32,261 nucleotides of DNA from positions 1 through 32,261 of IMG/VR virus record IMGVR_UViG_3300049200_000026; one strand, 5' to 3'. Below the pieces are notes generated by a model that worked only from the letters and a program-made list of their open reading frames with translations, made no database searches and had not been told where the DNA came from. The stretch comes from a virus. Its lineage: Duplodnaviria > Caudoviricetes. The translations under genes were made by a program, and so were the position numbers. This document shows positions 616-31,937 of the stretch, piece after piece. Positions within the stretch are counted from its first letter, which is position 1. Each line of letters opens with the position of its first letter.

Positions 616-654
616 ATTTAACCGGGTTAAAATTTAAAACGTAAAGGAGTAATT

Positions 655-1494
655 ATGCCTAAAGCAAAAACAGTAGACGATTTGGATTTTGAGATGGATG
701 ATGATGGTGAACTCAACCTAAGTGGATTTGAAGAAGGAGACGAATTTGACTTCGATAACGTGGAAGAGGATTCTGAGGAGGATGTTGAAGAAGATTCGGA
801 TAAGGAGGACGAAGGAGAAGAAGAGGATGATGAGGAAGAAGTAGAAGACGACGAAGAAGAATCTTCTGATCTAACTGTTGAAAGTCTCAAGGAAGAATTT
901 ACCACATTTCAAAAGAATCTTCCCAATGTTATTGCTCAATCGGTTGCAATGTCTCTTGCTGCAATTGGGTTGACAGGCAAGAAGAAAAAAGACGATGACG
1001 ACGAAGAGGATGAAGAAGAGGAAGAGGGCGAAATCAGTACTAAAACTCTTCTGAAACGTCTTGAGAAAAAGATTGACACTTCTGTAGAATCTGCTGTCAA
1101 CGGTAAGATGAGTAAATATCAGGCTGCGATGGATGAAGCTGATATTACCAGACAATTCAGGACGGGTGCTGGCAAGTATGGGGCTGCTTTCGTTAAAGCT
1201 ATGCCTCAATTGGCTGTCATTATGAGAGATGCCGAACTTCGTGGACAAGACGCCGCTGAGAAAGCATGGAAGATTTATCGTAGATTGAATCCTCAGCAGC
1301 GTGATAAACTGAAGGTTGATATTCAAAAGAAGCAAAAATCTATTGCTCGTAAGAAACCTGATGCTGATTCTGCCGATGTAGTGACTAAAGCGCCTGAAAG
1401 AACTCCATTTAAGAAGTTCAAAGGCAACGATAGCGATGTATTCGATAAGTCGTTCGATTCGTCTATCGTTTCTCACATGAAGAGACGAAAGTAA
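655..1494 (+). CDS. Putative capsid scaffolding protein
   Basis: AAGGAG RBS; very acidic N-terminus with helical, basic C-terminus; lies directly before the major capsid gene. Confidence 0.6.
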   Translation: MPKAKTVDDLDFEMDDDGELNLSGFEEGDEFDFDNVEEDSEEDVEEDSDKEDEGEEEDDEEEVEDDEEESSDLTVESLKEEFTTFQKNLPNVIAQSVAMSLAAIGLTGKKKKDDDDEEDEEEEEGEISTKTLLKRLEKKIDTSVESAVNGKMSKYQAAMDEADITRQFRTGAGKYGAAFVKAMPQLAVIMRDAELRGQDAAEKAWKIYRRLNPQQRDKLKVDIQKKQKSIARKKPDADSADVVTKAPERTPFKKFKGNDSDVFDKSFDSSIVSHMKRRK

Positions 1495-1504
1495 AAAAGT
1501 AATT

Positions 1505-1565
1505 CCCTCCTCAAAAAAATTAACCCTCCTAGAACACCCTCCTAACCCTCCTAAATAACCCTCCT
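1505..1565. repeat. Five CCCTCCT heptamers (AGGAGGG on - strand) in the scaffold-capsid intergenic region
   Basis: Copies at 1505, 1524, 1537, 1546, 1559. Confidence 0.9.
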
Positions 1566-1610
1566 ATCACATTTTAACCGGGTTAAATTTCTCAAGGAGG
1601 AAATTACTTC

Positions 1611-2660
1611 ATGCCCAATCCGAATTTTGACCAAATCGCTACTACGACTTTACAGCGTTATCGCCCACGCTTTGCTGACGCGGTAACTGATAAGTCGGCA
1701 GTAATGTTCAATATAAAGAAGAGAGGCGGTGTTGAAGAACAAGCCGGAGGCAGAACATTGGTAGAGCCGGTGATCTTCGGTGAAAACACCACTGTCGGTA
1801 GCTATCGAGACTTCGATAAGTTGCCGACAGACCCACAAGAAGGTATGACATCCTCGGAATATCCGTGGGCGTCACTGTCGGGATCTCTTGTCATTTCAGG
1901 TAGACAAGAGTTTATCAACGCTGAAAACAAAACTCGCGTATTGTCTCTCCTCAAGGGTAAGACAATGCAACTTCAAATGACGGTTACTAACGAGTTTAAT
2001 CGTCAATCACATTCTGACGGTTCTGGTAATGGTGGTAAAGATATTACAGGTTTTGCCGCATCTATCGAGAATGGCGCGGCTTGGAACGTTTACGGTGGTA
2101 TTGATTCAAACATTGATTTGTGGTGGAGAAATCAATGGATTGGGTTTGACGCCTTTGCTTCAGCTAGACTCGCTAATGGTAACTTTCTTCAAGAACTAGA
2201 CCAAGATTACAGAGTATTCAGACAAGTCCTGACCACATTCTACAACTCCTGTATGCGTAATACAGATAAACTCAAACTCATGCTTACTGGTCAAAGGGTG
2301 CATGAATACTTTGAATCGTCTGTCGTAGTCAACGAGCGTTATGTCAAGCAAGGTAATATGTCGGATGCTAACCTTGCTAATGCTAACTTTGAAAACTTGC
2401 TCTTCAAATCCGTCCCAATTGTGATGGATAATCTTGTGCCTAACACAAGTATTGCCGCTGGCGCCACTAATCAAGAGTTGATCGGTCTGAATACAGACTT
2501 TATCAAGTTGATTATTGGTTCTGGTCGTAATTTCGTTATGACTGAGTTTGTTCGTCCTCCCGATCAAGACGCTAAAGTTGCACAGATGATCCTGTTCGCT
2601 CAATACACTGAACAGCTTCGTGATCTTCATGGTCGTATGGACGATATTGACTTTGCATAA
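1611..2660 (+). CDS. Major capsid protein
   Basis: 349 aa, AAGGAGG RBS. N-terminus NPNFDQIATTTLQRY..ADAV, then GGRTLVEPV, DGSGNGGKDITG, YGGID and NFENLLFK, as in a widespread phage MCP family; follows the scaffold. Confidence 0.85.
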   Translation: MPNPNFDQIATTTLQRYRPRFADAVTDKSAVMFNIKKRGGVEEQAGGRTLVEPVIFGENTTVGSYRDFDKLPTDPQEGMTSSEYPWASLSGSLVISGRQEFINAENKTRVLSLLKGKTMQLQMTVTNEFNRQSHSDGSGNGGKDITGFAASIENGAAWNVYGGIDSNIDLWWRNQWIGFDAFASARLANGNFLQELDQDYRVFRQVLTTFYNSCMRNTDKLKLMLTGQRVHEYFESSVVVNERYVKQGNMSDANLANANFENLLFKSVPIVMDNLVPNTSIAAGATNQELIGLNTDFIKLIIGSGRNFVMTEFVRPPDQDAKVAQMILFAQYTEQLRDLHGRMDDIDFA

Positions 2661-2672
2661 GGAGTTATCATC

Positions 2673-2996
2673 ATGCCTGCCGGAGATGTTAGACAAGGTA
2701 CTTTTACCAGAGTACAGACTGACGGTAGAACTACAATAGCCGCTTTGATTGGTGGTGGTACTTACCTACTCCTTAAAATCAAAGCAGGCGGTTGTATCTT
2801 AATTGGTGATGCTACGATTGATCCTGCCGGTAGTGATACTGCAAAAGGTTACAGGCTAACTCCCGGCGAAGAGTTCTACATAGATGATGGTGGCAACACT
2901 GTCGCTAATCTTATTGATGGGGCAAAGATAAACATCTACGCTGCTGAGGGAGCTAGACCAGTCTCTATTAGCATATTTGCTATAGACGACGCTTAA
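2673..2996 (+). CDS. Hypothetical virion protein
   Basis: AAGGAG RBS; small beta-rich protein in the head module. Confidence 0.6.
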   Translation: MPAGDVRQGTFTRVQTDGRTTIAALIGGGTYLLLKIKAGGCILIGDATIDPAGSDTAKGYRLTPGEEFYIDDGGNTVANLIDGAKINIYAAEGARPVSISIFAIDDA

Positions 2997-3020
2997 TTTA
3001 ACCCGGTTAAAGGAGAAAAA

Positions 3021-3665
3021 ATGGCTGACAAACTTTTGTATGATGTTACTAAGTTCGGAACAGTAATTGAAAACGAACTTGGTATTGAAGTTGACGACTC
3101 AAGAGGTCGTCAAGGGGATAAGATAATCACTAGATTACATCCCACTTCTGCTGGTGGTGGTGGTCAATCTTCCCAAATTATCATAATGAATCGTTACCGA
3201 CCCGGTAATCGTTACCGATATGTAAGGGCTAACGGCACAATCACACAATTTAACTCAGTTAAAGCGGATATTGCATTTGCTACTGAAGCAGATAGGGATG
3301 CTAATATTATCAATACTGATGCTAATGATACATTGGGCAATGTAGTTGACGGTATTGCTGAACAAGGTCTTGGTGGGCCATTAACAACTGATCCGGCTTT
3401 GACTTCTCATCTGGCAGGAACATTTATGTTCATTACGGTTAGAGGCAAGGCTATTGCTAATGTGAACGCTGCTGTTGTTGCTGCCGATGTGTTAGGCCCT
3501 GATCCAGCAACAGCCGGTAGGCTGTCTACTTTGGCTGTAACTACTCCAACCGCTGCTGAGACTCGAAGAATTACTAATGCAGCTAGTGGGTTAGGTATTA
3601 GAGCATTGGTTAATGAGCCACCAACAGGATTTAAAGCCAATCTTACGTGGGTTAAATTGACATAA
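3021..3665 (+). CDS. Putative capsid decoration/cement protein
   Basis: AAGGAG RBS; Gly/Ala/Thr-rich; GNRYRYVRA and FITVRG segments resemble phage decoration proteins; near the MCP. Confidence 0.5.
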   Translation: MADKLLYDVTKFGTVIENELGIEVDDSRGRQGDKIITRLHPTSAGGGGQSSQIIIMNRYRPGNRYRYVRANGTITQFNSVKADIAFATEADRDANIINTDANDTLGNVVDGIAEQGLGGPLTTDPALTSHLAGTFMFITVRGKAIANVNAAVVAADVLGPDPATAGRLSTLAVTTPTAAETRRITNAASGLGIRALVNEPPTGFKANLTWVKLT

Positions 3666-3973: not shown

Positions 3974-4005
3974 ATAATTTAACCGGGTTAAACCGAGCGA
4001 AAGGA

Positions 4006-5355: not shown

Positions 5356-5373
5356 TTTAACTGGGTTAAAATC

Positions 5374-7032
5374 ATGGGTGAGAGAACAGGTACAGAAAAA
5401 ACTCCAATAAGAAAAATATCCATTGATGCTTTTTTTGGTGGAGTGAATACTTCTGCCGGCCCTACTGAAATCGAAGACAATGAAGCCGTCGAGATACTCA
5501 ATTTTGAATATGATGACCTTAACAATTTAGTTACTAGAAATGGAGTGACTAAATCAGGAGATGTTTATAGTAACAAAATTACTAGCATCTTTAGTTTTAA
5601 TACTGACTCAGGTTTTATAGGTATTCTGTATACTCAAGGAACTCAGTTGTTATCAAGGCCATTAGTTTTGGGTAGTATTACTAACCTTACAGGGGCATTG
5701 AGTTTGCCCAATGGGGCTAGATGGTACTGGAAAGCATTAAACAATGTTGCTGTCGGAGTAAACGGCGCAACAGGGGCAGGTAATCCGATTCAAGTTGTCG
5801 GGCCTGCCCCCGGTACTGCTTCTCATTTAGCGGCTGCTCCTGATGGTAGATATATCGAGGAACATGATAACAGACTTTGGATAGTACATGCATCTAGTCC
5901 TAATAGACTTCAATGTTCTGATTTAGGAAGTGCTACAGCATGGAATACGGGGGGTCTTACTAATCCAGTTCAAGGAATAACCATAGACATTGCCCCCGGT
6001 GATGGAGATATAATAACTGGATTGTATGCTACCAAAGAGAGACTGTTTATCTTTAAAAGGAGAAGGATATATGTTCTAAGAGCAACAGCAGTACCTAATA
6101 CTGATCCTAGTACTTGGGAAGTCGTAGAGTATTCTAAAAACATAGGATGTATCGCCCAAACTACCATAAGAGAAACCTTTGATGATGTGTTGTTCTTAAC
6201 AGAAGAGGGTACTGTAGCCTCTCTTGCTGCTGCTGAGCAAACAGGAGATTTTAAAAACTCTTCTGTTAGTGAGAAAGTAGCTGAAATTAGTCAAATATCT
6301 AAAACAATAACAGATTTAGATGTATTCGGATATACTCTTAATGATGTTAGTCAGTATTGGTTATGCGTAGCTGCATCTTTTTCTAGCTTTAATAAGAATA
6401 CTACTTTTGTATTAGACTACAGCAAGGTTACGCAAGGTGTGGCTAGATGGGTTTTCTTTGATGGTTACGCTTTTGGTACTTCTATTGAGCAACACGTCAT
6501 AGGGACTGCCCAGACTACTTATTTATTAGGTGTTGATGTTCCTACAAGTGGAGATTTTTTTATAGGGTTATACGTTCCTGGGACTTTAACAAAGATGTTT
6601 GCTGACGATACTGCGCCCATTTTTCAATCCATATTAACAAAGTCGTATGATTATGAATTACAAGATTTGAGAAAGCTATTTAAAGACTGGTTTCTTGTAT
6701 TCATAATACTTTCAGAATTTCTTTCTTTATTAATTACATATATCATTAATGATGGAGAATCTGAAGGTCAATATAATTTTGGATTAGTCAGGGGTGACTT
6801 ATCATTTGGTGGAGTGTATGGGACTGCTTTATATGGAACTGGTTTATACGGATTCAATATTTCTCCGCGTACTAGGAGAATAAGAAGGGCGCCATTATTT
6901 GATAAACAAAGGAAATTTGTAACCATACAGTTTCTAATAACTTGTCAGACTATAAATCAGGGTTTCATTATAAATAATTTTGGTATTAGATCGGCAATTC
7001 TTAGTACGTCTAAAGCACAAGATACAGTTTAA
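5374..7032 (+). CDS. Tail nozzle / stabilization protein (tail tubular protein B or P22 gp10-like)
   Basis: FFGGVNT...NF...LVTRNG start; beta-propeller-like repeats (GDIITGL...LFIFK, IGCIAQTTI); follows the adaptor. Confidence 0.7.
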   Translation: MGERTGTEKTPIRKISIDAFFGGVNTSAGPTEIEDNEAVEILNFEYDDLNNLVTRNGVTKSGDVYSNKITSIFSFNTDSGFIGILYTQGTQLLSRPLVLGSITNLTGALSLPNGARWYWKALNNVAVGVNGATGAGNPIQVVGPAPGTASHLAAAPDGRYIEEHDNRLWIVHASSPNRLQCSDLGSATAWNTGGLTNPVQGITIDIAPGDGDIITGLYATKERLFIFKRRRIYVLRATAVPNTDPSTWEVVEYSKNIGCIAQTTIRETFDDVLFLTEEGTVASLAAAEQTGDFKNSSVSEKVAEISQISKTITDLDVFGYTLNDVSQYWLCVAASFSSFNKNTTFVLDYSKVTQGVARWVFFDGYAFGTSIEQHVIGTAQTTYLLGVDVPTSGDFFIGLYVPGTLTKMFADDTAPIFQSILTKSYDYELQDLRKLFKDWFLVFIILSEFLSLLITYIINDGESEGQYNFGLVRGDLSFGGVYGTALYGTGLYGFNISPRTRRIRRAPLFDKQRKFVTIQFLITCQTINQGFIINNFGIRSAILSTSKAQDTV

Positions 7033-7051
7033 CCCGGTTAAAGGAGAACGG

Positions 7052-8344: not shown

Positions 8345-8402
8345 ATTTTAACCGGGTTAATTTCCGAAGTTAAACCGAGGATTATGAGCGAAAGCGAAGA
8401 TT

Positions 8403-8999
8403 ATGCCACTCCCTTATCGCAGAGGCGCAGAAAGGATAATCAGATACCTGACTGGTAAATTCCAGTTAGGCGGTGTTTTTCCAAGTGATGGTTATATTAC
8501 AGGTGTTGCAAAAGTAATTCACAAGAATTATGATTTAGTTCAAAGTGCTGCTGGCGCTCCTGGCGCGGTTACGAGTTTAGATGAATTTACTATTGTAGCC
8601 GGAGCGTTAAAACCAGGCGATTTATTAGAAGTATGTTACGGCGGATTTAATACACCGAATGATAATGATAAAAATTTAGTTGTTGATTTCGGCACAGCTA
8701 ATGTAGAAACCACGGGACTAAAGGATGTAGACGATTTGGGATGGCAATTTTTTATTAGCTATGGGGTTGTGAATGCAACAACTGTTAGATATGTAATGAG
8801 TTTGATTACAGGTATGGCTGAATCTACAAGCGCACCTGTTTTTAGTGGTGGTTTTGGAACTAGAATTATATCTAGGGGCGGTACACTGACTCCGGCAAAT
8901 ATGGATTCCAACAACCAACTACTTAGAGTCAGGGGGCAAGGAACTGCTCTAGGAGATATAACTAAGGCTATAGCTTATATTAAATTAACAAGATTTTAA
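8403..8999 (+). CDS. Putative tail-associated structural protein
   Basis: 198 aa beta-rich protein in the virion operon. Confidence 0.55.
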   Translation: MPLPYRRGAERIIRYLTGKFQLGGVFPSDGYITGVAKVIHKNYDLVQSAAGAPGAVTSLDEFTIVAGALKPGDLLEVCYGGFNTPNDNDKNLVVDFGTANVETTGLKDVDDLGWQFFISYGVVNATTVRYVMSLITGMAESTSAPVFSGGFGTRIISRGGTLTPANMDSNNQLLRVRGQGTALGDITKAIAYIKLTRF

Positions 9000-9018
9000 C
9001 CGGGTTAAAGGAGTAAAG

Positions 9019-10108: not shown

Positions 10109-10324
10109 ATGCATATACCAGTTTTAAAAATAGTAGTACACAAGGCAGAGCAGGGAGACACTGTGTTCATTTTTACCTCAGTTAAATATCCAGATAAATT
10201 GGGGTACATACAGTTACAGATACCTTGCCCAATAGGTGAGGGAGAAAGGTGGGTACAGAAAGAACTTGGTACACCAAATTACGAAGTAGTGCCTGAAGGA
10301 TTTGAGGTAGTTGCACCACTTTAA
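10109..10324 (+). CDS. Hypothetical protein, 71 aa
   Basis: AAGGAG RBS; its stop codon lies inside the palindrome at 10320. Confidence 0.6.
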   Translation: MHIPVLKIVVHKAEQGDTVFIFTSVKYPDKLGYIQLQIPCPIGEGERWVQKELGTPNYEVVPEGFEVVAPL

Positions 10325-10345
10325 CCGGGTTAAAATGGAGGTAGT

Positions 10346-11812: not shown

Positions 11813-11830
11813 TTTTAACCGGGTTAAATT

Positions 11831-16909: not shown

Positions 16910-16922
16910 TGTTTTAACCTGG

Positions 16923-17378
16923 TTAAAGTTTGATGTTTGAGCCTCTCTTATCAGAGACTTCATTAAATTTGAGTATAACTTCTCGAGCTAAATCAATTTC
17001 AAGACTAGCGGCTAGTAAATCGAGGTATATTTGGATGTCGGCTATCTCCTTAGCCAAGTCTTTAATAGGTATATCTTCTCCCCTTCTTACTTTCTTGAGC
17101 AAGTTACACATTTCACCAACCTCTCCGGTTAGAGCAACTGCCCAATCAGCATGTGACCAATCTTCAAACTTGTGAAATACATCATTACATCTGGCAACGT
17201 TTGCTTCTCTTAATTCAGCAAAGGTTAAACTCAAATTTCTAATCATTGGATTTCTTGTTCGTTCAGTCAATTTTTCCATTCGTTTTCTCAATTCTGACTT
17301 TTTTAGGTCTGACATTGGATCACAATTAGGTTCTGTTTTCGGATCAAATAGTTCATCTAAGTTCGGATATTCAGGCAT
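16923..17378 (-). CDS. mazG: MazG-like nucleotide pyrophosphohydrolase
   Basis: GEVGEMCNLLKK...LAKEIADIQIYLDLLA matches the ExxE...ExxD all-alpha NTP-PPase motif. Confidence 0.85.
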   Translation of the reverse strand: MPEYPNLDELFDPKTEPNCDPMSDLKKSELRKRMEKLTERTRNPMIRNLSLTFAELREANVARCNDVFHKFEDWSHADWAVALTGEVGEMCNLLKKVRRGEDIPIKDLAKEIADIQIYLDLLAASLEIDLAREVILKFNEVSDKRGSNIKL

Positions 17379-17884: not shown

Positions 17885-17915
17885 TCCTTTCGTTCGGTTT
17901 TTAACCGGGTTAAAT

Positions 17916-19371: not shown

Positions 19372-19419
19372 TTAAACGTTTAGTTATTTTCTCTTTTAAC
19401 CGGGTTAAATTGTCTCTCG

Positions 19420-20976
19420 TTAGTAGAATTTCTTTTGCTGCTTTTTCTTTGGGCGTACCTCTTCTTCTTCCTCTTCTTCATCCTCGCTATCGCTCGGTGG
19501 CACAGCTTTTCTGAATTTAGCATCAGCAGCTTTCTTTCTCTTTTGAGCAGGAGTTTCTTCTTCCTCCTCCTCATCTTCTTCTTCCAGTTCTTCGTCTTCT
19601 TCTATCTCTTCAATCTCTTCAATCAAGCCCTCTTCCTCTTCATCTATCGTTTCATAATCATCTTCCTCTATTTCTTCCTCTTCTTCATCTACCACTTTGT
19701 TTTTCCCTGCCTTAGAAGACTGAATTGGAGGAATATCTCGAACAGGTCTTGAAGTTCCTTGTTTACTTTTGGATTTTGGAGTCTCTTCCTCCTCATTGTC
19801 ATCTTCTTCAGTAGATAAAGTTTTTCCTGTTACTTTAGCTTTATTTTTCCTAGTCGGAGGAGTTTCGTCATCATCCCATCTTTCCTCTTCTTCCTCTTTC
19901 TGTTTTTGTTTAGCCCTAGCTTTCTCAGCATGAACATTTTTAACCGGGTTAATTCCTAGAGTCTTTTTCTTTGCTTCTCCTAATACCTTGTCAGCAAAAC
20001 TCTGTGAGTAGTTATCGTCCAATGGATTATCACTAGCTTCAAAGCCGGGTATCTCATAACCCACTTGTTGAATTATCTTCCCCAACTCAGTCAACTTACC
20101 GTCACCAAGAAACAACATCTTGTTTGCCATCTGCTGATAGGTAAGGAACTTCTCAGCTTCAATCTTATGGAGTTCATGGACACCGTAAGAACTAGGATCA
20201 AAGGTTAATAGCTCTGTCTTATCTTTCCCATACGGCATATTTCTATACTGCAATGGGCCTTGCTTACCTTTAAACTCGAAGGTATATTCCCTGCTATTCT
20301 TTCCAACACCTTCACCCTCTGCCCCTACTGCAATATTTAACCCGGTTTCAAGCTCAAAGTACTTCAATAATTCCTCCTCCTCTATCTCATCATCACCTAT
20401 CTCAAGTTTAACAAATCGTTCCAATGATTGAAGTATTTTCTTTAAACCAGAGGGAGACATTTCCCAGACATACAAGCCACTTGGAACAACACCCTCTTTT
20501 ACCTTACCTTTGTCATCAAGTGGCTCAGGCAACGCTTGTCTGAGATAAAAGAATGGAGCAATGATTCTAGTTTTGCTACGCAATATGTTGTTTAATTCTT
20601 TGCGATCTAATCCATATTCTTTTTCCAATGCTTCAAGAGCGACACAGGCTACACAACCATTGGTTTTGATCTTTTCTCCCTCTGCTTTATTCAACTTCTT
20701 GGTTTGAATCAAATACTTTCTAATACCTTGCTTGTTATCCATTACATAATCAAGACACAGACCAGACCAGAAGGTTGATTTTTGTCCCATATCATGTACT
20801 CGAAAAGACCTAAAGAATCTATCAATGTCATTATCATACTCTGGATCATGACCGACATTCAGTATTCTTCCTACGTGAACTCCTTCTGAAAACTTAATAA
20901 ATATATTTTTGAAGTCAGATTTAGAGTTTTCGTTAGCCCACGACATCATATCACTGAAGCTCATTTTATTAGCCAT
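19420..20976 (-). CDS. Putative ssDNA-binding protein (gp32-like) with long charged tail
   Basis: AAGGAG RBS; FIKFSEGVHVGRIL start, H..C..CVAC possible Zn site, YVWEM, REYTF, acidic tail; between polymerase and nuclease. Confidence 0.55.
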   Translation of the reverse strand: MANKMSFSDMMSWANENSKSDFKNIFIKFSEGVHVGRILNVGHDPEYDNDIDRFFRSFRVHDMGQKSTFWSGLCLDYVMDNKQGIRKYLIQTKKLNKAEGEKIKTNGCVACVALEALEKEYGLDRKELNNILRSKTRIIAPFFYLRQALPEPLDDKGKVKEGVVPSGLYVWEMSPSGLKKILQSLERFVKLEIGDDEIEEEELLKYFELETGLNIAVGAEGEGVGKNSREYTFEFKGKQGPLQYRNMPYGKDKTELLTFDPSSYGVHELHKIEAEKFLTYQQMANKMLFLGDGKLTELGKIIQQVGYEIPGFEASDNPLDDNYSQSFADKVLGEAKKKTLGINPVKNVHAEKARAKQKQKEEEEERWDDDETPPTRKNKAKVTGKTLSTEEDDNEEEETPKSKSKQGTSRPVRDIPPIQSSKAGKNKVVDEEEEEIEEDDYETIDEEEEGLIEEIEEIEEDEELEEEDEEEEEETPAQKRKKAADAKFRKAVPPSDSEDEEEEEEEVRPKKKQQKKFY

Positions 20977-21011: not shown

Positions 21012-21326
21012 CTAATCTTCTTCTGTGTGGAAAGTTTTACTAAAATGTTTTCTGTTATACTCCAAATGTATCGGAGTAAGAATTTCGATTAGTCTTTTAC
21101 GTTCGTCCTCATACTTTTTTATTTGTTCTGGGGACATTGCTTGCCAAGTATCATCCTCGCCAGTATAACCCAATATCTTATTAAGGTGTTGGAGTTTATA
21201 CGCCATCCCTATCATTGGATTCGATGTACCCTTTTTCCTTTTAAGATAGTAGGTACGTTTATAATTCTCCGGGTTATTTTTTTTCTCCTGTTTTTTAACC
21301 CGGTTAAATTTATTCCTTCTCTTCAT
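21012..21326 (-). CDS. Hypothetical basic protein
   Basis: GAGG RBS; tightly packed ORF. Confidence 0.55.
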   Translation of the reverse strand: MKRRNKFNRVKKQEKKNNPENYKRTYYLKRKKGTSNPMIGMAYKLQHLNKILGYTGEDDTWQAMSPEQIKKYEDERKRLIEILTPIHLEYNRKHFSKTFHTEED

Positions 21327-21695: not shown

Positions 21696-23618
21696 TCATC
21701 TCCATCTTGAAAGATAGTCACATTTAAATTCCAACGGCACTGTAATATCAACTCCAAACACTTCCAGGATGTATTCCTTAATATCTACCTCCATAATCCT
21801 TTGCATATCCTTTTTGAGTTTAGCCATACTACCACGATTATAGTTATTCTTGACTTCACAAAGAATTGAATCATGGACTTGTAGCAAAATACATCCATCC
21901 CATTCAGGATTCTGTTGAAAGTATTTATCAAGCAATATCATCCCAATAATAGGTAGCCAACCGGAAGCGGTTGATTGGATGATAAAGTTTATCCCTTGCC
22001 TGATAGCTCTCTTTGAGTCTTGATCTTTCCAGTTTTCATTTGCATTGGGTAGTCTCCTTATCTGGCCTAACGGCATCCTCACGTATTTGTGAGTGATGAT
22101 GAATTGTTCTACTTGTTTTTTCCATCTAACTATATTGGGATATAGTTTCTTTCTATCATTGCAAAGCTGAATACACTCCTCTAATTCCCAATATATTCCA
22201 TTCTTTACCATCTCTCTTTGCAATCTCTCAGGTGATGCCCCATATATCTCCCCAAAGTTGATATTTTTTATACCTACTCTCAAGTTTTTTACATCTTGAT
22301 ACTCTCTAGCTGTCGGAGTATCTAGTAACTTCAGAGTATCTTCGTAGTCTCTGCCTGTCATCTCGCATAGAGTAGCAGTATGAATGTCTTTTCCTTCCTC
22401 AAACATCCTTAACATTCGTTTCTCTTTAGCTAACCATGCTGCTATGCGTAGCTCTATTTGGGAGAAATCGCCTTCAAGGAATATATAACCGGGGCGTGGT
22501 ATGTATACTCCCCTAAATTCAGAACCACGTTTTTGATTCTGCATATTAGGATTACTACTACTTAACCTACCTGTAGCAGTAACACCTATGTTGAAAGAAG
22601 TGTGGACGCAACCATCGGCTTGAATCCATTTGGGAAGTTTTCCATAGTACTTTTCATTCAATCCTACTAACTTGTTATACTCAAGTAACTTCTCTATAAA
22701 TACTGTACCTCTTTCACTTCTAGTGCCGCATTGTTCCTGTCTTATCCTGATAATTGATTCTGAATCTGTACTACCTGCGCCTGTATTAGTCCATTTAACC
22801 GGGTTAAAATCAAACTTATTAAACAGAATACTGGCTAATTGCTTTGGGCTATCTGGATTAAATGGACTCATAGCCAATTCTTTTAACTCTTGCCGTATGT
22901 CTATGAGATGTTCATACAACTTCATTTGCTCACGCTTGGCGTATTCTTGGTCTACCAGCACCCCTCTTGTTTCCATCTTAGACAGAACAGGTATAGCCTG
23001 ACAACCTATGCCCATGATTTTAGTTAGTCCATGTTCTTCTAATGCTGGATCAAGATACCCGTCTTTTATAAGTCTAGTCGCCTTAGTATCTCTCATGTTG
23101 TAGAGCAATTCATCATCGGGGTGCATCTCTCTTAGTTTACGCCTATTGATCTTAGTTTTATACTGATTCATCACTTCGTATCTGTCGCACAATTCTTCGA
23201 GAGACACGTATATATCATTCTCATTGAGGAAATATGCGCCAAGCATAGTATCATAGGCAAGACATCTCATCTTCCATTTGAACTTATAGCACAGAAAGTT
23301 CAAATCAAACTTGATATTGTGACCACAGACCATTACTTCGGGTGATTCAATAATCCTTTGAACTAACTTTAACCCGGTTAAACTGTATTCTCCATCTAGT
23401 CTAAATCCATATTGCTTCCCATTAACACTTAAAGCAATGGAGAGTATTTCTGTTTTAGGATCATATGGATTTAAACCGTTATCCTCTGGCCCGATAGTCT
23501 CTATATCAAGGTTGACAACTTTACCTATTACTTCTCGAAAGAGTAATGCCCCAATGCCGAAGTAATTCTTAGGCCACTTCTCAAGTTTAGGATATTGCAT
23601 AGGGAGAATCTGTTGCAT
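21696..23618 (-). CDS. polA: Family A DNA polymerase with 3'-5' exonuclease
   Basis: Exo motifs LDIET, GHNIKFD, YNMRD; pol motifs TATGRLSSSNPNMQN, DFSQIELR, KNINFGEIYG, QVHDSI. Confidence 0.97.
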   Translation of the reverse strand: MQQILPMQYPKLEKWPKNYFGIGALLFREVIGKVVNLDIETIGPEDNGLNPYDPKTEILSIALSVNGKQYGFRLDGEYSLTGLKLVQRIIESPEVMVCGHNIKFDLNFLCYKFKWKMRCLAYDTMLGAYFLNENDIYVSLEELCDRYEVMNQYKTKINRRKLREMHPDDELLYNMRDTKATRLIKDGYLDPALEEHGLTKIMGIGCQAIPVLSKMETRGVLVDQEYAKREQMKLYEHLIDIRQELKELAMSPFNPDSPKQLASILFNKFDFNPVKWTNTGAGSTDSESIIRIRQEQCGTRSERGTVFIEKLLEYNKLVGLNEKYYGKLPKWIQADGCVHTSFNIGVTATGRLSSSNPNMQNQKRGSEFRGVYIPRPGYIFLEGDFSQIELRIAAWLAKEKRMLRMFEEGKDIHTATLCEMTGRDYEDTLKLLDTPTAREYQDVKNLRVGIKNINFGEIYGASPERLQREMVKNGIYWELEECIQLCNDRKKLYPNIVRWKKQVEQFIITHKYVRMPLGQIRRLPNANENWKDQDSKRAIRQGINFIIQSTASGWLPIIGMILLDKYFQQNPEWDGCILLQVHDSILCEVKNNYNRGSMAKLKKDMQRIMEVDIKEYILEVFGVDITVPLEFKCDYLSRWR

Positions 23619-23623: not shown

Positions 23624-23842
23624 TTAATCCTCATTCCTAGACCAACCTTTGATTGCTCTAGCTACATCTAAAGCGTTCATCAATTCATTCAATTTGTTTT
23701 CTGATAGCAGAATTTTTGTACCTATTCCATCTCTGTCATTAGCATTTTGAACGAATAATACTACATGCTCTACTCCTGTATAAACTTCTATACTATGGTC
23801 AAAGATACCTTCTGTTACTGTCTTACCTATTGTTGTACTCAT
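23624..23842 (-). CDS. Hypothetical protein
   Basis: AAGGAG RBS fused to the palindrome at 23855. Confidence 0.6.
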   Translation of the reverse strand: MSTTIGKTVTEGIFDHSIEVYTGVEHVVLFVQNANDRDGIGTKILLSENKLNELMNALDVARAIKGWSRNED

Positions 23843-23869
23843 TTTGTTTCTCCTTTTAACCCGGTTAAA

Positions 23870-23999: not shown

Positions 24000-25664
24000 T
24001 TACTCCAAGTCTAATTTGTTTAAGTCAATATCCTTCATCATTTGTTTAAAGGATGTTTCCTTTATTCTTTGATGTGGATAATTAGTTTTAAAGAACGTTG
24101 TACCAGTAGGCCCGCGTGTATTCTTTCTGAGGTTACACCTAATCTCTTCTTTTGATGTAACATCCAAGACAATTGCGCCTTGCGCTGAAGAAAGTATTGC
24201 GGCTGAGCCAGAAAACAAGTGTCCGTCTTGTTTTCCATAGTTAATTGCAGGCATTCTGGATGCACATATGATTGTTTTACCATCATGTTTAGCTAAGTTT
24301 ATCAATCCTTTTAGGTTTGTTTCTATAGCCAACCTTTGATCTGATATAAGAGATGGCATATCTTGTAACAAATCAACAATAACCACGTCGAATATGTCTT
24401 TAGCATGGGTGATTTCCTCTATTGTTAGATCGTTCATGATTCTAGTTTTACTTAGTACATACTTCAACCATTCCTCTGTTTTTGGCTCTACTATATTGTA
24501 GTCTTCTTCAATGGCAGGCCACTTGTGCTTAGACTTCCTGCTAGCTAGCCTAGCTATTATTTGGTCTTTGGGAAGTTCATTTTCTACGCATAGTATTCTA
24601 GCCCCTTGCTCGACCAAGCAATCAATAGCGTCAATAGTAACAGTAGTCTTACCCACCCCCGGCTCACCACCTATCACATATAAACCTTGTGTAAACTTGA
24701 GTAGAGAGATACTTGTATTCCAGTACCTAAGTCTAGTTTTCTTCTTCAATTCCTCTAGGTAATTGCTATCGTATGTTTCATACTTGCTTGTTTGCTCTTT
24801 AAGCCAATGTTTCAGTGTCTCTTCATCTTCCCCATACAGATAGTTGATGTCTATCTTTATCTTGTGGTCGTGATCTTTGGGTACATATAATTCAAGTATA
24901 ATAGGGATGGCTCCCCATTCTTTTAATCTCTCTGCGGCTTGCTTAGCTCCCTTATTTCCACCAAAATCTCTATCGTAAATTATAAAGACCGTCTTGCCAC
25001 GCAATAGATAGGCTTGTTCCTCTGATAACTCTGCGCCAAATGAGAGTAACACATTCATTATTCCCATTTGGATCATAGCAAGGTAGTCTGTCAACCCTTC
25101 CACTAGAAAGAAGAATTTGAATTGGGAGATTCTCTCTTCACCAAATAATCCCTTCTCTTTTGCTCCACTTTCGTTGATGAATCTAGGTCGCTCTTGATTG
25201 ACCTCTCCCATATTACGACCGACCCACTTACCTTTGAAACCGTATCTGAAACATAGATAATCATCAACGATGGTGCCGCCCAATGAATTAACTGTCTTGA
25301 TTCTAATGTGCTTCTCCTCTTCAAATCTTTCCAGTATTTCGATGTCATGGCTATGTCCATTACCGTTGTTTAACCCGGTTAAATTATCTTCTTCGTCTTT
25401 AGCTTTAGGCATATCATCTTTTATCTGTATAGTTCTAGTGTATACTTGGATTGGGGAGTGATTGCCTTTCTCTTCCCATAAATTGCGTAGTCCAATAGAT
25501 TTATGACAACCTTTACACCTAAACCACCCCCCGTTGTTATCAAATATAACAGCGGCAGAAGGGTGTTTATCGTTGTGATAGATACACCGAACACCTATCC
25601 ATTTATGTTCGGTGTATCTTCTCACACCTAAGAGATTGCATATTTTCTCTTGGAGTTTGTTCAT
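24000..25664 (-). CDS. DNA primase-helicase
   Basis: Zn finger CIYH...CKGC; TOPRIM LVEGLTD...YDRD; Walker A GEPGVGKT; Walker B VVIVD. Confidence 0.93.
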   Translation of the reverse strand: MNKLQEKICNLLGVRRYTEHKWIGVRCIYHNDKHPSAAVIFDNNGGWFRCKGCHKSIGLRNLWEEKGNHSPIQVYTRTIQIKDDMPKAKDEEDNLTGLNNGNGHSHDIEILERFEEEKHIRIKTVNSLGGTIVDDYLCFRYGFKGKWVGRNMGEVNQERPRFINESGAKEKGLFGEERISQFKFFFLVEGLTDYLAMIQMGIMNVLLSFGAELSEEQAYLLRGKTVFIIYDRDFGGNKGAKQAAERLKEWGAIPIILELYVPKDHDHKIKIDINYLYGEDEETLKHWLKEQTSKYETYDSNYLEELKKKTRLRYWNTSISLLKFTQGLYVIGGEPGVGKTTVTIDAIDCLVEQGARILCVENELPKDQIIARLASRKSKHKWPAIEEDYNIVEPKTEEWLKYVLSKTRIMNDLTIEEITHAKDIFDVVIVDLLQDMPSLISDQRLAIETNLKGLINLAKHDGKTIICASRMPAINYGKQDGHLFSGSAAILSSAQGAIVLDVTSKEEIRCNLRKNTRGPTGTTFFKTNYPHQRIKETSFKQMMKDIDLNKLDLE

Positions 25665-25879: not shown

Positions 25880-26105
25880 ATTTCCTCACAAGTTTAATAG
25901 TTATTTCTTAACAGTGTAGTCTTCAAATTCCACGCCAATCATTTTTAGTGTAGTTGCATTAGCCTCGGTAATTTTTATGAGTGACCAGTTCACTGTGTGA
26001 CCGCAATCTACCTGTACTTTTAGGCTATATTTATCTTTATCATCCTTAATCACTTTAACTTTGGCACTTGTCATTTCTTTACTCATATTTCCTCACAAGT
26101 TTAAT
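25876..26105. repeat. 23-bp direct repeat TCATATTTCCTCACAAGTTTAAT flanking a 61-aa gene
   Basis: Identical copies at 25876-25898 and 26083-26105. Confidence 0.9.
25901..26086 (-). CDS. Hypothetical protein, 61 aa
   Basis: GAGG RBS within the direct repeat. Confidence 0.6.
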   Translation of the reverse strand: MSKEMTSAKVKVIKDDKDKYSLKVQVDCGHTVNWSLIKITEANATTLKMIGVEFEDYTVKK

Positions 26106-26453
26106 GATCGTTGGTAGATACTTCTTCCATTCATTCAGCGGTAGAAGTTTGCCCTTAGAAGTCTTCTTTAACCTCTCTTTTTTAACCCCGTTAAATTCCT
26201 CTGCTTCTTTTTTAAATATCCTGATGTCAAGATACTTTCTATCCTCCACTTTGTTTCTGAGAATACGAATGACTATCCATTCATCGTCTCTCTTATTCCT
26301 GCTTTGTATGGGAATTACCCTTTCGAGCAATTCCCATACCGTTGATTCTTGTTTAAGTTTACGGCTTACATTATCACTATGAGATAAGTAAACCAATTCA
26401 TCCCAATCATCTAGAAATTGGGATACATAGAGATTGCCAGAATGCCATCTCAT
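26079..26453 (-). CDS. PC4/YdbC-like ssDNA-binding protein
   Basis: YLDIRIF...TSKGKLLPLNEW matches the PC4-fold signature (Y.DIR...T.KG..L...W). Confidence 0.7.
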   Translation of the reverse strand: MRWHSGNLYVSQFLDDWDELVYLSHSDNVSRKLKQESTVWELLERVIPIQSRNKRDDEWIVIRILRNKVEDRKYLDIRIFKKEAEEFNGVKKERLKKTSKGKLLPLNEWKKYLPTIIKLVRKYE

Positions 26454-26703
26454 TAAGTGACGCCTGAATATGGCTAATTTTCTCCATCCCTTTAGTTTTC
26501 TGAGCCACGTTACGAAATTTCTTTTCCGTAAGGAAATTACCTCCTTCGATGTATTCGTCTACTTCTGTGATGACTTTCTGGACTGATACGGGTATGCGCT
26601 CTCTAGGTTTTCTTTGTTTTGGCTTAGGTGTTTGTCGTTGAATGTTGTCTATGTCGTCCCAATTCTCATCATATTGATTTAACCGTGTTAAATTATTCTG
26701 CAT
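26407..26703 (-). CDS. Hypothetical protein
   Basis: AAGGAG RBS. Confidence 0.6.
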   Translation of the reverse strand: MQNNLTRLNQYDENWDDIDNIQRQTPKPKQRKPRERIPVSVQKVITEVDEYIEGGNFLTEKKFRNVAQKTKGMEKISHIQASLNEMAFWQSLCIPISR

Positions 26704-27085: not shown

Positions 27086-27087
27086 AT

Positions 27088-27453
27088 CTACTCCTTTGGT
27101 GGTGTATATTGACTGTAAATTCTCCCTTTATACGGTCTAAATGTCCCTAGAGAGGGGTCTTTTCCATCAGAGACAAGCATATCTAAATCATCGCCTCTGA
27201 GTTCCATATCAATATATTCTTTCAAAACATTGTTTAGAATAAACTCCCTTGAAAGATTATATTCTAAAAGCGATTGAAATCTTTTATGTGTCAATTTGAT
27301 AATCTTGAATTGCCTATCCATTGGCAATTCAAGCAATCTTTCTTTTGCTCCTTCATCAATAGTTTTGTTATGGTTCGGCAAATTTAAACGATTGCAGTTT
27401 TCACAAACTATAGTAATATCTGCATTGTTTCGGAGGCATATTACGCATAACAT
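27088..27453 (-). CDS. Hypothetical protein with N-terminal CxxC..CxxC Zn finger
   Basis: CVIC...CENC; AAGGAGG RBS. Confidence 0.6.
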   Translation of the reverse strand: MLCVICLRNNADITIVCENCNRLNLPNHNKTIDEGAKERLLELPMDRQFKIIKLTHKRFQSLLEYNLSREFILNNVLKEYIDMELRGDDLDMLVSDGKDPSLGTFRPYKGRIYSQYTPPKE

Positions 27454-27914
27454 AATTTTTCCTCCTTCTTCCTTCTGATACTTCTCCTTTCAGTGGCTAT
27501 TTCTACAGTTTCAGAAATGTTTAGCTTACATGCTCCTTTTCTTTCTTGTATCAGGATTAAACAACTGTCTGGCTGAGCTACGTTGTTAGTTTGTGGGTAG
27601 CTATCAATCAATTTCCATCTAGCCTCTTGTAGAGTTATTGGAAATTCTACTTTCCATGTTCTGTATTCCAGCTCTGCCGCATACATGAGCATGGGGTTTT
27701 TTAACACAGTTAAAGGTTTGACTATTTGTGTAATGTGACAACGGACAAGATCATCTATTTTATCTAGGACTTTGATTTTGAGGTCTTTATTGTGGAAGGC
27801 TTTCTTGAGTTGAATTTGGTCTAGGTATTTGGTATATTCCGTTGTTCTGTTTTGGCAGTAAATCCTAACGAAGTGAGGTACTTCTATTTCTACTTCAGGC
27901 ATATTGTCTAACAT
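27441..27914 (-). CDS. Hypothetical protein
   Basis: 157 aa ORF coupled to the downstream gene. Confidence 0.6.
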   Translation of the reverse strand: MLDNMPEVEIEVPHFVRIYCQNRTTEYTKYLDQIQLKKAFHNKDLKIKVLDKIDDLVRCHITQIVKPLTVLKNPMLMYAAELEYRTWKVEFPITLQEARWKLIDSYPQTNNVAQPDSCLILIQERKGACKLNISETVEIATERRSIRRKKEEKLCYA

Positions 27915-28004
27915 GTGTAACCTACTTTCTTATTTAAGGAGCATAACGCATTCTGCTGTGTGTTATGCTCCGGGAGATGTAGTGGGAGTAAGAATTTAAC
28001 CGTG

Positions 28005-28547
28005 TTAAACTGTCAATGGGCCTTCTGGTTCTTCTTCCCAATCATGTATAACTATTGTAGGATTTATTTCACAAGCCAATTCTTTAATCCACCCTCTATG
28101 GATGGCAATTTGCTCTGCCATGAGTATACGTGGATATACTTCTGGATTATCTTTCCAATGTTCTTTGGCTTGTTCAAGGCTGAAGTTTCTACAACCTGCT
28201 AGGATACGAATGCAATGGGATTCTGGATAATCGTTTGTATTTCTAATTGCAATGAATGCCCAACCTCTATCATCTATTCCTAATTCTATGTTTGATTTGT
28301 GTGGTGGACACGCAAAATCAGTATCGTGTCTTTGTTCCCATTGCTTGTCAATAAAATATATTTGACCGCCTTCGGATGCATGTAAAACCTTAGCTACTAA
28401 TTTTCCTCCATGCATCAATCTGTATTCTGTTGACCATCCATTAAATCTACAAGGTTCTGTTATATCAGAATGCACCAAAGTTTCGGTAGTGACATCAACC
28501 AAAATTCGCAGCATATTGGTGAAACGCTGTCTATCAACTAATTCCAT
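28005..28547 (-). CDS. Hypothetical early protein
   Basis: AAGGAG RBS; first gene after the promoter at 28660; stop lies inside the palindrome at 27995. Confidence 0.65.
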   Translation of the reverse strand: MELVDRQRFTNMLRILVDVTTETLVHSDITEPCRFNGWSTEYRLMHGGKLVAKVLHASEGGQIYFIDKQWEQRHDTDFACPPHKSNIELGIDDRGWAFIAIRNTNDYPESHCIRILAGCRNFSLEQAKEHWKDNPEVYPRILMAEQIAIHRGWIKELACEINPTIVIHDWEEEPEGPLTV

Positions 28548-28631
28548 GATTGTATCTCCTTAATTTTCTACGTTACGTTTTAACCCAGTTAAATTTCCAA
28601 TCTAATCGGGCATACTTTTACTTACGGAACT

Positions 28632-28660
28632 ATTGTAACATAAGTTAGAACTAATGTCAA
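28632..28660 (-). promoter_or_regulatory. Sigma70-type promoter
   Basis: TTGACA-N17-TACAAT with extended -10 TG, read on the - strand. Confidence 0.8.
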
Positions 28661-28794
28661 GGGAAAAGTTTTGTTAAATTGTTGCAAATAAAGGAGTTAT
28701 AGAACTTAAAATCTGCGCCAACCTTTGGACTCTAATAACCGATATTCTATTTAACACAGTTAAATCAGACATTTTAACCCCGAATTTTGGTTTA

Positions 28795-28854
28795 GTTAAT
28801 TGGTCATACCATTATTAGTCAGACCAATTAACCAAACTGGTCAGACCAATTAAC
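28795..28854. repeat. Three tandem AATTGGTCnnACCAATT-like boxes
   Basis: 28798 AATTGGTCATACCATTA, 28813 TATTAGTCAGACCAATT, 28835 AACTGGTCAGACCAATT; exact 15-bp direct repeat at 28818 and 28840. Confidence 0.8.
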
Positions 28855-29264: not shown

Positions 29265-29282
29265 TAGATAAACTTATAAAAC

Positions 29283-29316
29283 AAAAGGCAGGCTATTTAT
29301 TTAGCCTGCCTTTTTT
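29283..29316. terminator. Bidirectional intrinsic terminator
   Basis: AAAAGGCAGGCTA-tttatt-TAGCCTGCCTTTTTT between convergent ORFs. Confidence 0.85.
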
Positions 29317-29337
29317 ATTACCTATTTGATCTTACCA

Positions 29338-29742: not shown

Positions 29743-29744
29743 GA

Positions 29745-30011: not shown

Positions 30012-30038
30012 TTTGCTATCCTCACTTTGTTTCTGGTT

Positions 30039-30070
30039 AAAAAAAGTGAGAAGCTATTTCTAGCTTCTCA
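30039..30070 (-). terminator. Intrinsic terminator downstream of the ParB-like gene
   Basis: TGAGAAGCTA-GAAA-TAGCTTCTCA then CTTTTTTT on the - strand. Confidence 0.8.
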
Positions 30071-30092
30071 TAGTCACCACACGGTTAAATTG

Positions 30093-31181
30093 TTATTCGT
30101 CTGTATCTTCGTATTCCGACGAATCCATCTCATCGTCTTCCTCATCTGCCATAGGATTCTTTTTAACCGCTTTAGTAGCCTTCTTAGCGGCTTTCTTAGC
30201 GGCTTTCTTTTCCTTTGGTGAAGAGAAATCAACATCACTGAGCCAAGCCAAATCAATCTTATCTCGCTTAGCGATCTTAATGGTGTCGGTAATTGTACGC
30301 TTCATAAAGAAGCAATCCAGCACAAGCCTGATTTCAAGCGGCACATTCTCCGAATCATCAGCAAGGGATTTGAGCCAAGCTATACCTTGATTCTTGCGCC
30401 CTTCGCCTGTGATCTTACGTGCGCCAGCTACTCCGCTAACGTCGGCAGTCTTAACTTTAGTTCTGCCTGATTCATTGGCTTTTTTGATTGTTTCGGCCAA
30501 AGCTGATTTGATTTTATCCTCATCATAAACCTTTTGACCGTCTTTCTTGAGTGGCTTATTATCCTTGCCAGTCTTTTGAAATTTAGAGCTGACAAAGGCC
30601 GATGCCTCCTTAACTCCAATCTTACCAGCTTTAACCGCATCATAGAGCGGTTTTACAGCAGTCACGTCTAACACCTGACTCACGTACACATGGGAAAATC
30701 CCGTCTGTGCGCCAATCTGTTCAAGTGTACACCCCAAGTCCCGCAATGTCCTAAATGACTGCGCTCTAGTTTGTACGTCGTCCTCATAACGCCAAGTATT
30801 GCGAGCCACACTCTGGGCTAGGATGTCCCTGATTTCCTCATCCGTAGTAGGTTTATCGCAGAGGATAACTGGAATGAGAAGTAATTTGCCATTCTCAGCC
30901 TTAGTCAGACCTTGCCTTGCTAGTTCTTGAATGGCTGTCATGCGTTGTCTACCTGAAACTAGTTTGAATTTATTACCCTCTGGATAGCCAATGGTGGCAT
31001 CAAGTATACCGACTTGCTTAATTGAAGCGGTCAATTCATCAATCTTCTCAAGACTCCACTGCTCTCTAGCTCTATTAAGCTGTGGAATGTCGGTAAATTC
31101 GCAAGACGATGGTTTGACGAATACCACTTTGCCAACCAATGATTTGCCGTCACTCGATTTAACAGTCTTAAATGTGTTCAT
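30093..31181 (-). CDS. parB: ParB/Spo0J-family DNA-binding protein (ParB N-domain plus HTH, histone-like and acidic tail)
   Basis: IDELTASIKQVGIL (box I), LVSGRQRMTA (GxxRxxA), RNTWR (ENxxR position), HTH TLEQIGAQTGFSHVYVSQVL, LYDAVKAGKIG; GAGG RBS. Confidence 0.85.
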   Translation of the reverse strand: MNTFKTVKSSDGKSLVGKVVFVKPSSCEFTDIPQLNRAREQWSLEKIDELTASIKQVGILDATIGYPEGNKFKLVSGRQRMTAIQELARQGLTKAENGKLLLIPVILCDKPTTDEEIRDILAQSVARNTWRYEDDVQTRAQSFRTLRDLGCTLEQIGAQTGFSHVYVSQVLDVTAVKPLYDAVKAGKIGVKEASAFVSSKFQKTGKDNKPLKKDGQKVYDEDKIKSALAETIKKANESGRTKVKTADVSGVAGARKITGEGRKNQGIAWLKSLADDSENVPLEIRLVLDCFFMKRTITDTIKIAKRDKIDLAWLSDVDFSSPKEKKAAKKAAKKATKAVKKNPMADEEDDEMDSSEYEDTDE

Positions 31182-31292
31182 ATTTTTCCTCGTTTTTTAA
31201 CTACGTTAAATTTTTTGCTACTAAGTAGCAGTTATAGAGTAAAGTCTACTCAAGAAAGAGCTAGTAATTACTAGCTCGATCTTCAAAAGACT

Positions 31293-31523
31293 TTAGCAAT
31301 AGATTGGAAGTTTACCGCTATCTAGTTTATCTTCCTTAGTAAAGACAAGATAGGTTTTGTTAGTGTCCATTTCATAGCAAGCGGCGTAATTCCATCCCTT
31401 GTTGCTGTGAGCTATTCTCTCTTCATTAATCACCGCCTGACGCTGATAATTCCAGCTATAGCCAGTGATGGTAACTAACGCCATATTCTCGAAATCATCT
31501 CTAAAGATTAGTATGTGTGACAT
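31293..31523 (-). CDS. Hypothetical early protein (start revised to ATG 31523)
   Basis: GAGGAG RBS; first gene after the promoter at 31626. Confidence 0.6.
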   Translation of the reverse strand: MSHILIFRDDFENMALVTITGYSWNYQRQAVINEERIAHSNKGWNYAACYEMDTNKTYLVFTKEDKLDSGKLPIYC

Positions 31524-31597
31524 GTGTTGACTCCTCACTTTGTTTAACCGTGTTAAATTTCTGCCTAATTCAAACTACACTTGTAGAATGAATCGCA

Positions 31598-31626
31598 AGT
31601 CTATCCTTATATAGAGCAAAAGTCAA
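31598..31626 (-). promoter_or_regulatory. Sigma70-type promoter for the ParB-containing early operon
   Basis: TTGACT-N17-TAGACT on the - strand. Confidence 0.7.
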
Positions 31627-31749
31627 ACGATTCGAGAAAATAATAAGTCCTTTAGAATCAACAGGTTACAGACTATGCTTGTAAAGATAATCGCCTATTT
31701 TGGCTAACAAGGCTACTAGGTTGGTCAAAAACGTAATGGTCTTATAAAT

Positions 31750-31937
31750 TTGAACGTGTTCAATTATTTTTGAACGTGTTCAAAAAGTACTTTGTGTCAT
31801 AAAGTAGTGAGCAAAATACAGTATTTTAGCCATAAAAACACGTATTTTAATAGATTGTTCACTGGGAAACAATCCATGAAATGACTGATTTAACCGTGTT
31901 AAACTGCTACTTTTGATATATTGTTCACTGGGAAACA
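31750..31937. repeat. Paired repeats in the non-coding end
   Basis: TTGAACGTGTTCAA at 31750 and 31770; ATTGTTCACTGGGAAACA at 31854 and 31920. Confidence 0.9.

Follow-up and report, generated by a model that had tools for sequence, protein, structure and literature searches.

A 32,261-nucleotide stretch of viral DNA (IMG/VR record IMGVR_UViG_3300049200_000026; hereafter the window), a podovirus fragment amounting to about 73% of its genome, carries along its length an array of the palindrome TTTAAC-N3-GTTAAA, which is real and not an artefact, and encodes an orphan ParB-family protein that, judged from sequence comparison, probably binds it. Divergent relatives with the same gene order carry arrays built on a different word in each, and every near-complete one of them encodes an orthologous ParB. 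A preliminary description of the window had noticed the array and the ParB-like gene; what is new here is a clade-wide, lineage-specific word whose site positions are conserved, together with a test case in culture.

The palindrome array in the window

In the window (GC content 38.4%), 29 perfect copies of the palindrome lie between positions 617 and 31903, against a mean of 0.00 and a largest count of 0 in 100 dinucleotide shuffles; with up to one mismatch there are 34 copies against 0.22 expected, the five near-copies starting at 8347, 10172, 10798, 19939 and 31158. The preliminary description had counted slightly low (28 perfect and 3 one-mismatch copies), and it was right that the array is dense and far above chance, as it was about one copy per about 1.1 kb and no gap above about 2.45 kb (mean gap 1117 nt, largest 2446 nt). 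These gaps are more even than uniform placement would give (coefficient of variation 0.57, P 0.0012), also when stop-adjacent sites are held fixed and the remainder is randomised (P 0.015), and under this stricter null evenness was significant in the window and in two relatives introduced below, G002 and G008. All ten tenths of each genome hold sites; because the sites are spread in this way and not clustered, a reading of the array as a parS centromere was rejected.

A spacer of 3 was the only one found with 6-bp arms among spacers of 0-11, and the commonest form is TTTAACC-S-GGTTAAA, with CGG or CCG at the centre of 17 of the 29 sites. In sense orientation the centre base is G at 16 sites and C at 11, which indicates no strong site orientation. 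Folding energies of the sites are only 0 to -2.9 kcal/mol, and in the relatives G001, G002 and G007 the base pair beside the centre is complementary at 41 of 42, 67 of 68 and 38 of 38 sites, a regularity that suits duplex binding and not a hairpin. Together, invariant dyads, a free centre, weak folding and a complementary pair beside a 1-nt centre suggest a dimeric protein that binds duplex DNA. A stem of 6 bp closing a 3-nt loop can also be drawn, and the repeats might then be hairpins, in RNA or in single-stranded DNA, that serve as processing or termination signals at gene junctions, where many of them lie; this is highly improbable, and it was rejected because folding is weak, the sequence does not covary but is invariant, the pair on either side of a 1-nt centre is conserved although it could not form within a loop, and Rfam gave no match.

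A stop codon lies within 60 nt of 15 of the 29 sites, several of which provide the TAA itself, and a start codon lies within 50 nt of 13; ten sites fall deep in open reading frames (ORFs) in the automatic gene model, and three of these (16913, 17900 and 31889) look like junction or non-coding positions once their flanks are read. Overall, roughly two thirds of the sites are junctional or non-coding. With about half of the sites near a stop or just before a start, a site upstream of every parB, and KorB of plasmid RK2 described as a repressor in the main text of its report (PMC11790492), the ParB might instead sit on the sites as a static repressor or roadblock, without spreading, and so keep a genome in a carrier or plasmid-like state silent, much as stoperators do. 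We consider this unlikely: about a third of the sites are deep in genes; they are symmetric, with the mixed centre base given above, whereas stoperators are asymmetric and oriented according to the main text of PMC4351075; they flank the best promoter match without overlapping it; and neither a tyrosine integrase nor ParA was found in the clade records searched, nor any relative in genome_contigs. Many sites contain or adjoin a TAA stop, and the same source reports that deletions in Cluster O phages arose by recombination between repeats (PMC4351075), both of which would suit boundaries of recombination cassettes with attC-like TAAC...GTTA ends used for gene shuffling. That origin is very unlikely, however, and the attC-like reading was rejected, because no tyrosine recombinase was found, sites lie within polymerase, primase, terminase and portal genes, and clade gene order is conserved; the attC resemblance moreover fails for the words of the relatives.

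Among close relatives the site arms are identical at 305 of 312 positions, compared with 920 of 1040 in the flanks. One of these relatives (L001, capsid 99% identical) provides the terminase and portal genes and has 15 sites in 12 kb, 11 of which lie upstream of the window's start, so that the window and this stretch together hold 40 sites; the intragenic site at 3249 is lost in L001, and an apparent mismatch at 3978, where L001 in fact has a perfect site, is probably due to a shifted alignment. When IMG/VR was scanned for the exact 15-mer pattern, 106 stretches were returned, and more than two copies per locus occurred only in L001 (and overlapping records), L016, L064, L076 and L089, all of them close relatives of the window by DNA identity. 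Among the sequencing runs listed, all 20 with the phage were from soil metagenomes, and none was an RNA data set; contigs from 4 of these 20 were short pieces, from which no conclusion was drawn. ParB-seeded locus searches of viral_contigs and genome_contigs gave no match, nor did a terminase profile search of genome_contigs, so that no host or prophage was found. An outer-membrane beta-barrel-like gene (L001 6820-7383, with orthologues) lies between the portal and zinc-ribbon genes, possibly encoding a superinfection exclusion protein, and hints at a Gram-negative host.

The plus strand of the window encodes capsid, adaptor and tail proteins, and the minus strand an exonuclease, DNA polymerase A, a primase-helicase and the ParB-like protein. 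The sites follow, perfect unless marked and listed without strand, together with one promoter match.

617-631: between a zinc-ribbon ORF (stop 615) and a scaffold-like ORF (655)
1573-1587: 5' of the major capsid gene (1611)
2997-3011: between stop 2996 and the ribosome-binding site (RBS) of ORF 3021
3249-3263: within ORF 3021-3665 (FNSVK)
3978-3992: directly past stop 3973
5356-5370: between the adaptor stop (5355) and a tail gene ATG (5374)
7028-7042: contains the TAA stop of ORF 5374-7032
8347-8361, one mismatch: intergenic
8995-9009: contains the TAA stop of ORF 8403-8999
10320-10334: contains the TAA stop of ORF 10109-10324
11814-11828: between stop 11812 and ATG 11831
13588-13602: within a 1385-aa gene (LTGLK), 12/12 arm bases kept in L064
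15989-16003: directly past stop 15988
16913-16927: contains the stop of MazG-like ORF 16923-17378
17900-17914: directly past the stop of a Cas4-like exonuclease gene (17916)
19395-19409: past stop 19420
19939-19953, one mismatch: within ORF 19420-20976 (INPVK)
21294-21308: directly past stop 21310, in the first codons of ORF 21012-21326
22794-22808: within DNA polymerase A (FNPVK), homologous position in G002
23368-23382: within DNA polymerase A (LTGLK), homologous position in G001 and G007
23855-23869: immediately 5' of the RBS of ORF 23624-23842
25369-25383: within primase-helicase (LTGLN), sharing an alignment column with a G001 site
26181-26195: within ORF 26079-26453 (FNGVK)
26678-26692: first codons of ORF 26407-26703
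27700-27714: within ORF 27441-27914 (LTVLK)
27995-28009: contains the stop of ORF 28005-28547
28579-28593: near the best sigma-70-like promoter match, about 40 nt downstream of its -10
28632-28660, minus strand: sigma-70-like promoter match, 11/12 with extended -10, a consensus match only
28750-28764: upstream of the same promoter match, at a distance of about 90 nt
31158-31172, one mismatch: first codons of the ParB-like gene
31196-31210: 14 nt upstream of the ParB-like gene ATG
31543-31557: upstream of ORF 31293-31538
31889-31903: final site, close to the early end

Sigma-70-like promoter matches overall are no commoner than in shuffles. Other repeats accompany the array. A second, TTGGTCAGACCAA-like palindrome is present in two clear copies at 28797-28853, and in G001 it occurs three times near both ends (reverse-complement positions 1975, 38579 and 38617); we take it to resemble GntR/FadR-type operators, possibly for a host regulator. 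At the early end of the window, two TTGAACGTGTTCAA copies 20 nt apart (31750-31783) and a 17-nt direct repeat in two copies (31855-31937) are possible operator or origin elements. The 124-aa product of ORF 26079-26453, conserved in all six phages, weakly resembles single-strand binding proteins of the PC4 type (E 0.34).

A different word in each divergent relative

Searches with capsid, terminase and polymerase led to divergent, syntenic phages, the polymerase-seeded scan yielding one clade member among the 80 loci listed. Gene order is kept across this clade, and each member has an array of its own: TAAACA-S-TGTTTA in 41 copies (G001), TAAAGT-W-ACTTTA in 67 (G002), TAAAG-N3-CTTTA in 29 (G006), TTAAAT-W-ATTTAA in 38 (G007) and TAAAT-N-ATTTA in 20 (G008), where 0-0.75 copies are expected from 8 Markov simulations each; a further locus, L200, has five copies of TCAAA-N3-TTTGA in 6 kb. 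The word differs by 1-3 bases among phages whose capsid proteins are 40-66% identical. More distant capsid or terminase relatives (G003, L100, L101, L201 and L204, at 27-29% identity) showed no array, and G003 and G005 gave no ParB match. Among 169 loci of at least 3 kb, duplicates included, the sole clear array outside the clade belongs to one unrelated group, with at most 10 clustered copies. This group (G009, which is L190, with L154, L158, L172 and L180) carries ACTTAACACGTGTTAAG, of which G009 has 10 copies within 8 kb, mostly ahead of RBS-like sequences; G009, which is 86% complete, gave no ParB match.

The sites within genes are informative about how the arrays changed. Across ten orthologue families, the less conserved half of the protein holds 32 of the 38 perfect intragenic sites, and intragenic sites of different phages coincide within 6 alignment columns 12 times, where 1.8 coincidences are expected at random and 3.1 if the null draws only on the most variable third (P<=0.0007). 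Coincident positions despite different words suggest that the sites were inherited in place and rewritten; repeated use of the same tolerant loops is the alternative. In all genomes, the intragenic sites of each phage use one or two frames that avoid TAA and so leave peptide stamps, namely FNPVK/LTGLK in the window, KVTL in G002 (22 of 22 cases) and FKQCL in G001.

The orphan ParB-family protein and its pairing with the array

The candidate binder is encoded near the early end of the window.

30093-31181, minus strand: orphan ParB-family gene, 362 aa (Pfam, PHROG, Foldseek and profile comparison with the PDB)

As the preliminary description noted, its first codons include a one-mismatch copy, and 14 nt separate its ATG from the end of a perfect site upstream. 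The protein appears to consist of a ParB N-terminal domain (G77-R-Q-R80-x-x-A83, N128), a helix-turn-helix (HTH, about 153-175) and a helical C-terminal region, and it ends in a Lys/Ala-rich tail with an acidic tip. It has a PHROG ParB-like match (4.7e-8) and a Pfam ParB_N match under the cut-off (6.7e-5); in Foldseek, the top matches of its structural model (pLDDT 70, pTM 0.51, with an N-terminus of low confidence) are ParB, Noc and KorB structures (E 1e-7 for ParB/Noc), Spo0J being matched as well, and a clade profile compared with the PDB has ParB, Noc and KorB on top, its N-terminal domain and HTH aligning to them at E 1e-11. The modelled HTH helices (153-160 and 164-175) align to the ParB/Noc HTH, and Atlas neighbours of the protein carry HTH_ParB/KorB. 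Among 19 family members, G77 and R80 of the GxxRxxA motif (G77-RQ-R80-MT-A83) are invariant, N128 is kept in at least 90%, and the helical C-terminal region is conserved in both model and alignment. R80 and N128 are likely the equivalents of KorB R117 and N146, which the main text of the KorB report describes as needed for clamp closure (PMC11790492).

The co-occurrence that the preliminary description led one to expect is found in all four relatives that are at least 96% complete (G002, G006, G007 and G008), each of which has both an array and an orthologous ParB-fold/HTH protein, that of G002 being the syntenic ORF (hhalign 96.6%, E 5.7e-10). All five parB genes have a site 14-30 nt upstream, with one mismatch in G008; because perfect sites lie within 50 nt of the start of about 12-44% of genes, this gives only modest support. 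ParB is also the most divergent of 18 proteins shared in the clade. No ParA or integrase had been noticed in the window, and the searches bear this out: no ParA match passed the cut-off in five records, three weak matches falling in primase-helicase frames, and no tyrosine integrase was found in any of the five, serine integrases having no dedicated profile. A ParABS partition system was rejected, as no ParA was found and the sites are not clustered as a centromere. The claim that ParB is the only clear HTH protein needs one correction: the window covers about 73% of the genome, and the small terminase missing from it, seen in L001, also has an HTH-like N-terminus as read by eye. Three small winged-helix-like ORFs, likewise recognised by eye, are present in the G002 early region (L104 54-557, L106 9437-9682) and were not seen in the window; they are candidate alternative binders for G002 only.

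A proposed model of genome coverage

Even cover, together with sites written into long genes, argues for function by coverage, and ParB is the conserved gene that best fits a dimeric binder of this kind. We lean, with confidence a little above even, towards a fuller reading in which ParB loads at the sites, spreads and coats the genome. A ParB dimer would load at each site and be closed by nucleotide; with CTP the clamp would then slide over the roughly 1-kb gaps, until the whole genome is coated, as KorB or Noc do at smaller scale. The purpose would be whole-genome cover (organising, shielding or keeping the DNA readable) rather than control of a single promoter, with autoregulation of parB on the side, and sites would be rewritten in place as ParB specificity drifts. 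Still more broadly, and here our confidence falls somewhat short of even, a soil podovirus clade may use a ParB nucleotide clamp as a private genome coat with 20-67 self-specific loading sites, the whole array being rewritten, even in essential genes, when specificity drifts, and the same system may explain the Cluster O repeats.

Several observations weigh against the coating model. The canonical acidic residues of the GERR and EN motifs are not kept in the window ParB (GRQR, and a variable residue before N128), which makes CTP hydrolysis uncertain. The word of each relative was picked post hoc as its top spaced palindrome; under the stricter null the arrays of G001, G006 and G007 were not significantly even, and that of G001 has a 4-kb gap. 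The pairing also has weak points: G001 lacks its early end, so that its ParB could not be seen; the G002 protein was missed by a profile made from ParBs closely related to that of the window; matches of profile A9 to the clade ParBs arise partly by construction, because A9 includes the five clade proteins; and L101 has a weak ParB-like match (E 1e-6), yet no array. Nor does having a ParB-like gene predict an array. Twelve cultured phages with such a gene were tested, namely Corndog, OLIVR4 and 10 chosen among 358 tblastn records; Corndog alone has a dense array, the other 11 having at most 8 copies of any spaced palindrome, and Gordonia phage Kiko, whose ParB-like protein is 32% identical to Corndog gp90, has none. 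The covariation anticipated between word and HTH appears in only one of two pairs: G007 and G008 have a common word and the most alike recognition helices, whereas G002 and G006 have nearly the same word and HTHs that are only 5% identical, among the least alike.

This last pair also has the most similar tail tubular proteins, as might be expected if a host nucleoid or transcription factor bound the sites, the word followed the host and ParB had another job. We regard a host binder as improbable, since word differences of 1-3 bases between phages with 40-66% identical capsids fit private operators, and in IMG/VR several exact 15-mer copies per locus occur only in close relatives of the window. 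A further difficulty for the coating model is that the best matches among large terminases pair the window with G001, G002 with G006 and G007 with G008, in parallel with the word classes; with the even cover, which suits a processive step, and the HTH-like start of the small terminase, this could mean that the sites are read while DNA is packaged or enters the cell, by a phage protein of packaging or of the virion (the HTH of the small terminase, the large terminase or a core protein that is ejected). The margins of that pairing are about 0.01 normalised score, however, and the small terminase lacks the word-class pattern. Terminases form ring oligomers and start from a single pac or cos region, and they are not known to read dispersed dyads; a packaging reader is improbable, at about the level of a host binder.

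If the coating model is true, phage orphan ParB-HTH proteins acquire a target and a role, that of a replicon-wide clamp coat without ParA. Five natural protein-word pairs are offered for a cross-specificity test, and dozens of sites rewritten inside essential genes would be an unusual case of operator-array evolution.

Comparison with known systems

KorB has a ParA-type partner, IncC, and about 12 sites in 60 kb; in contrast, about 40-67 sites on 40-48 kb are found here, on phages and with no ParA found. In the main text of its report, KorB is a ParB-family CTP clamp that uses dispersed OB palindromes on RK2, slides, represses at a distance and works with KorA (PMC11790492). By inference, the window ParB would work like KorB and Noc. 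Noc, too, is an orphan ParB with many dispersed palindromes that functions by DNA cover; it differs in being chromosomal. Noc also has a membrane-binding N-terminal helix, and the window ParB model, of low confidence at its N-terminus, shows no such helix. The term orphan ParB is applied to Noc in the main text of a recent survey that describes ParB folds of phages chiefly as parts of fusions or as orphans whose role is unknown and states that the fold can also bind ATP or GTP (PMC12704722). VirB of Shigella, with its site virS, is described in two reports as an orphan ParB-type CTP switch on AT-rich mobile DNA that acts in anti-silencing against H-NS; its sites lie at selected promoters and do not tile the replicon as in the window, and by analogy the phage coat may keep AT-rich DNA readable (PMC10770331, PMC10653881).

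A stoperator system was rejected, the sites being symmetric and without strong orientation, and no tyrosine integrase or ParA being found. The repressor of the Cluster A stoperators is not known to be a ParB. These stoperators resemble the window sites in being many and near gene junctions, and according to the main text of the source they are asymmetric, oriented with transcription and found in temperate phages (PMC4351075), unlike the palindromic window sites with their G16/C11 centres. Microbacterium phages of Cluster EG have 8-10 intergenic inverted repeats that are not linked to ParB in the main text describing them (PMC7302621). In the literature covered (main texts, with few subscription papers), no phage ParB is shown on such an array.

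Among the 12 cultured phages, of which one has ParA, the best match to the window ParB is gp32 of Agrobacterium phage OLIVR4 (L217), an unannotated orphan ParB-HTH gene; OLIVR4 carries eight TACAAA-N3-TTTGTA copies in one 11-kb region (28366-39127). In Corndog our recount gives 35 repeats; unlike in the window one arm is favoured, the last 25 kb having 23 of them, and gp90 has a ParB_N domain and an HTH-like stretch. The main text of the Cluster O report gives 34 dyad repeats of 17 bp, no integrase or parAB and the ParB-like gp90, which it names as one of three candidate binders, and it calls a role in genome stability unlikely (PMC4351075). Cluster O consists of siphoviruses unrelated to the window phage, with an unrelated word, and that text describes a single word in near-identical genomes and no lineage-specific rewriting (PMC4351075). 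In both cases, as far as that text goes, there are more than 30 invariant, odd-centred palindromes throughout the genome, intergenic and intragenic, of unclear orientation and mostly off promoters, with an orphan ParB-like gene and no integrase or parAB (PMC4351075); the window has 29 such sites in 73% of the genome, and 40 with the L001 stretch. The candidate operator and clamp system of the preliminary description thus stands as a pairing with an orphan ParB and is less new than proposed, since its layout, as read from sequence, has a published precedent in Corndog and Cluster O (2015) that the description did not name (PMC4351075), and the old question of what binds the Corndog repeats becomes testable in a cultured phage.

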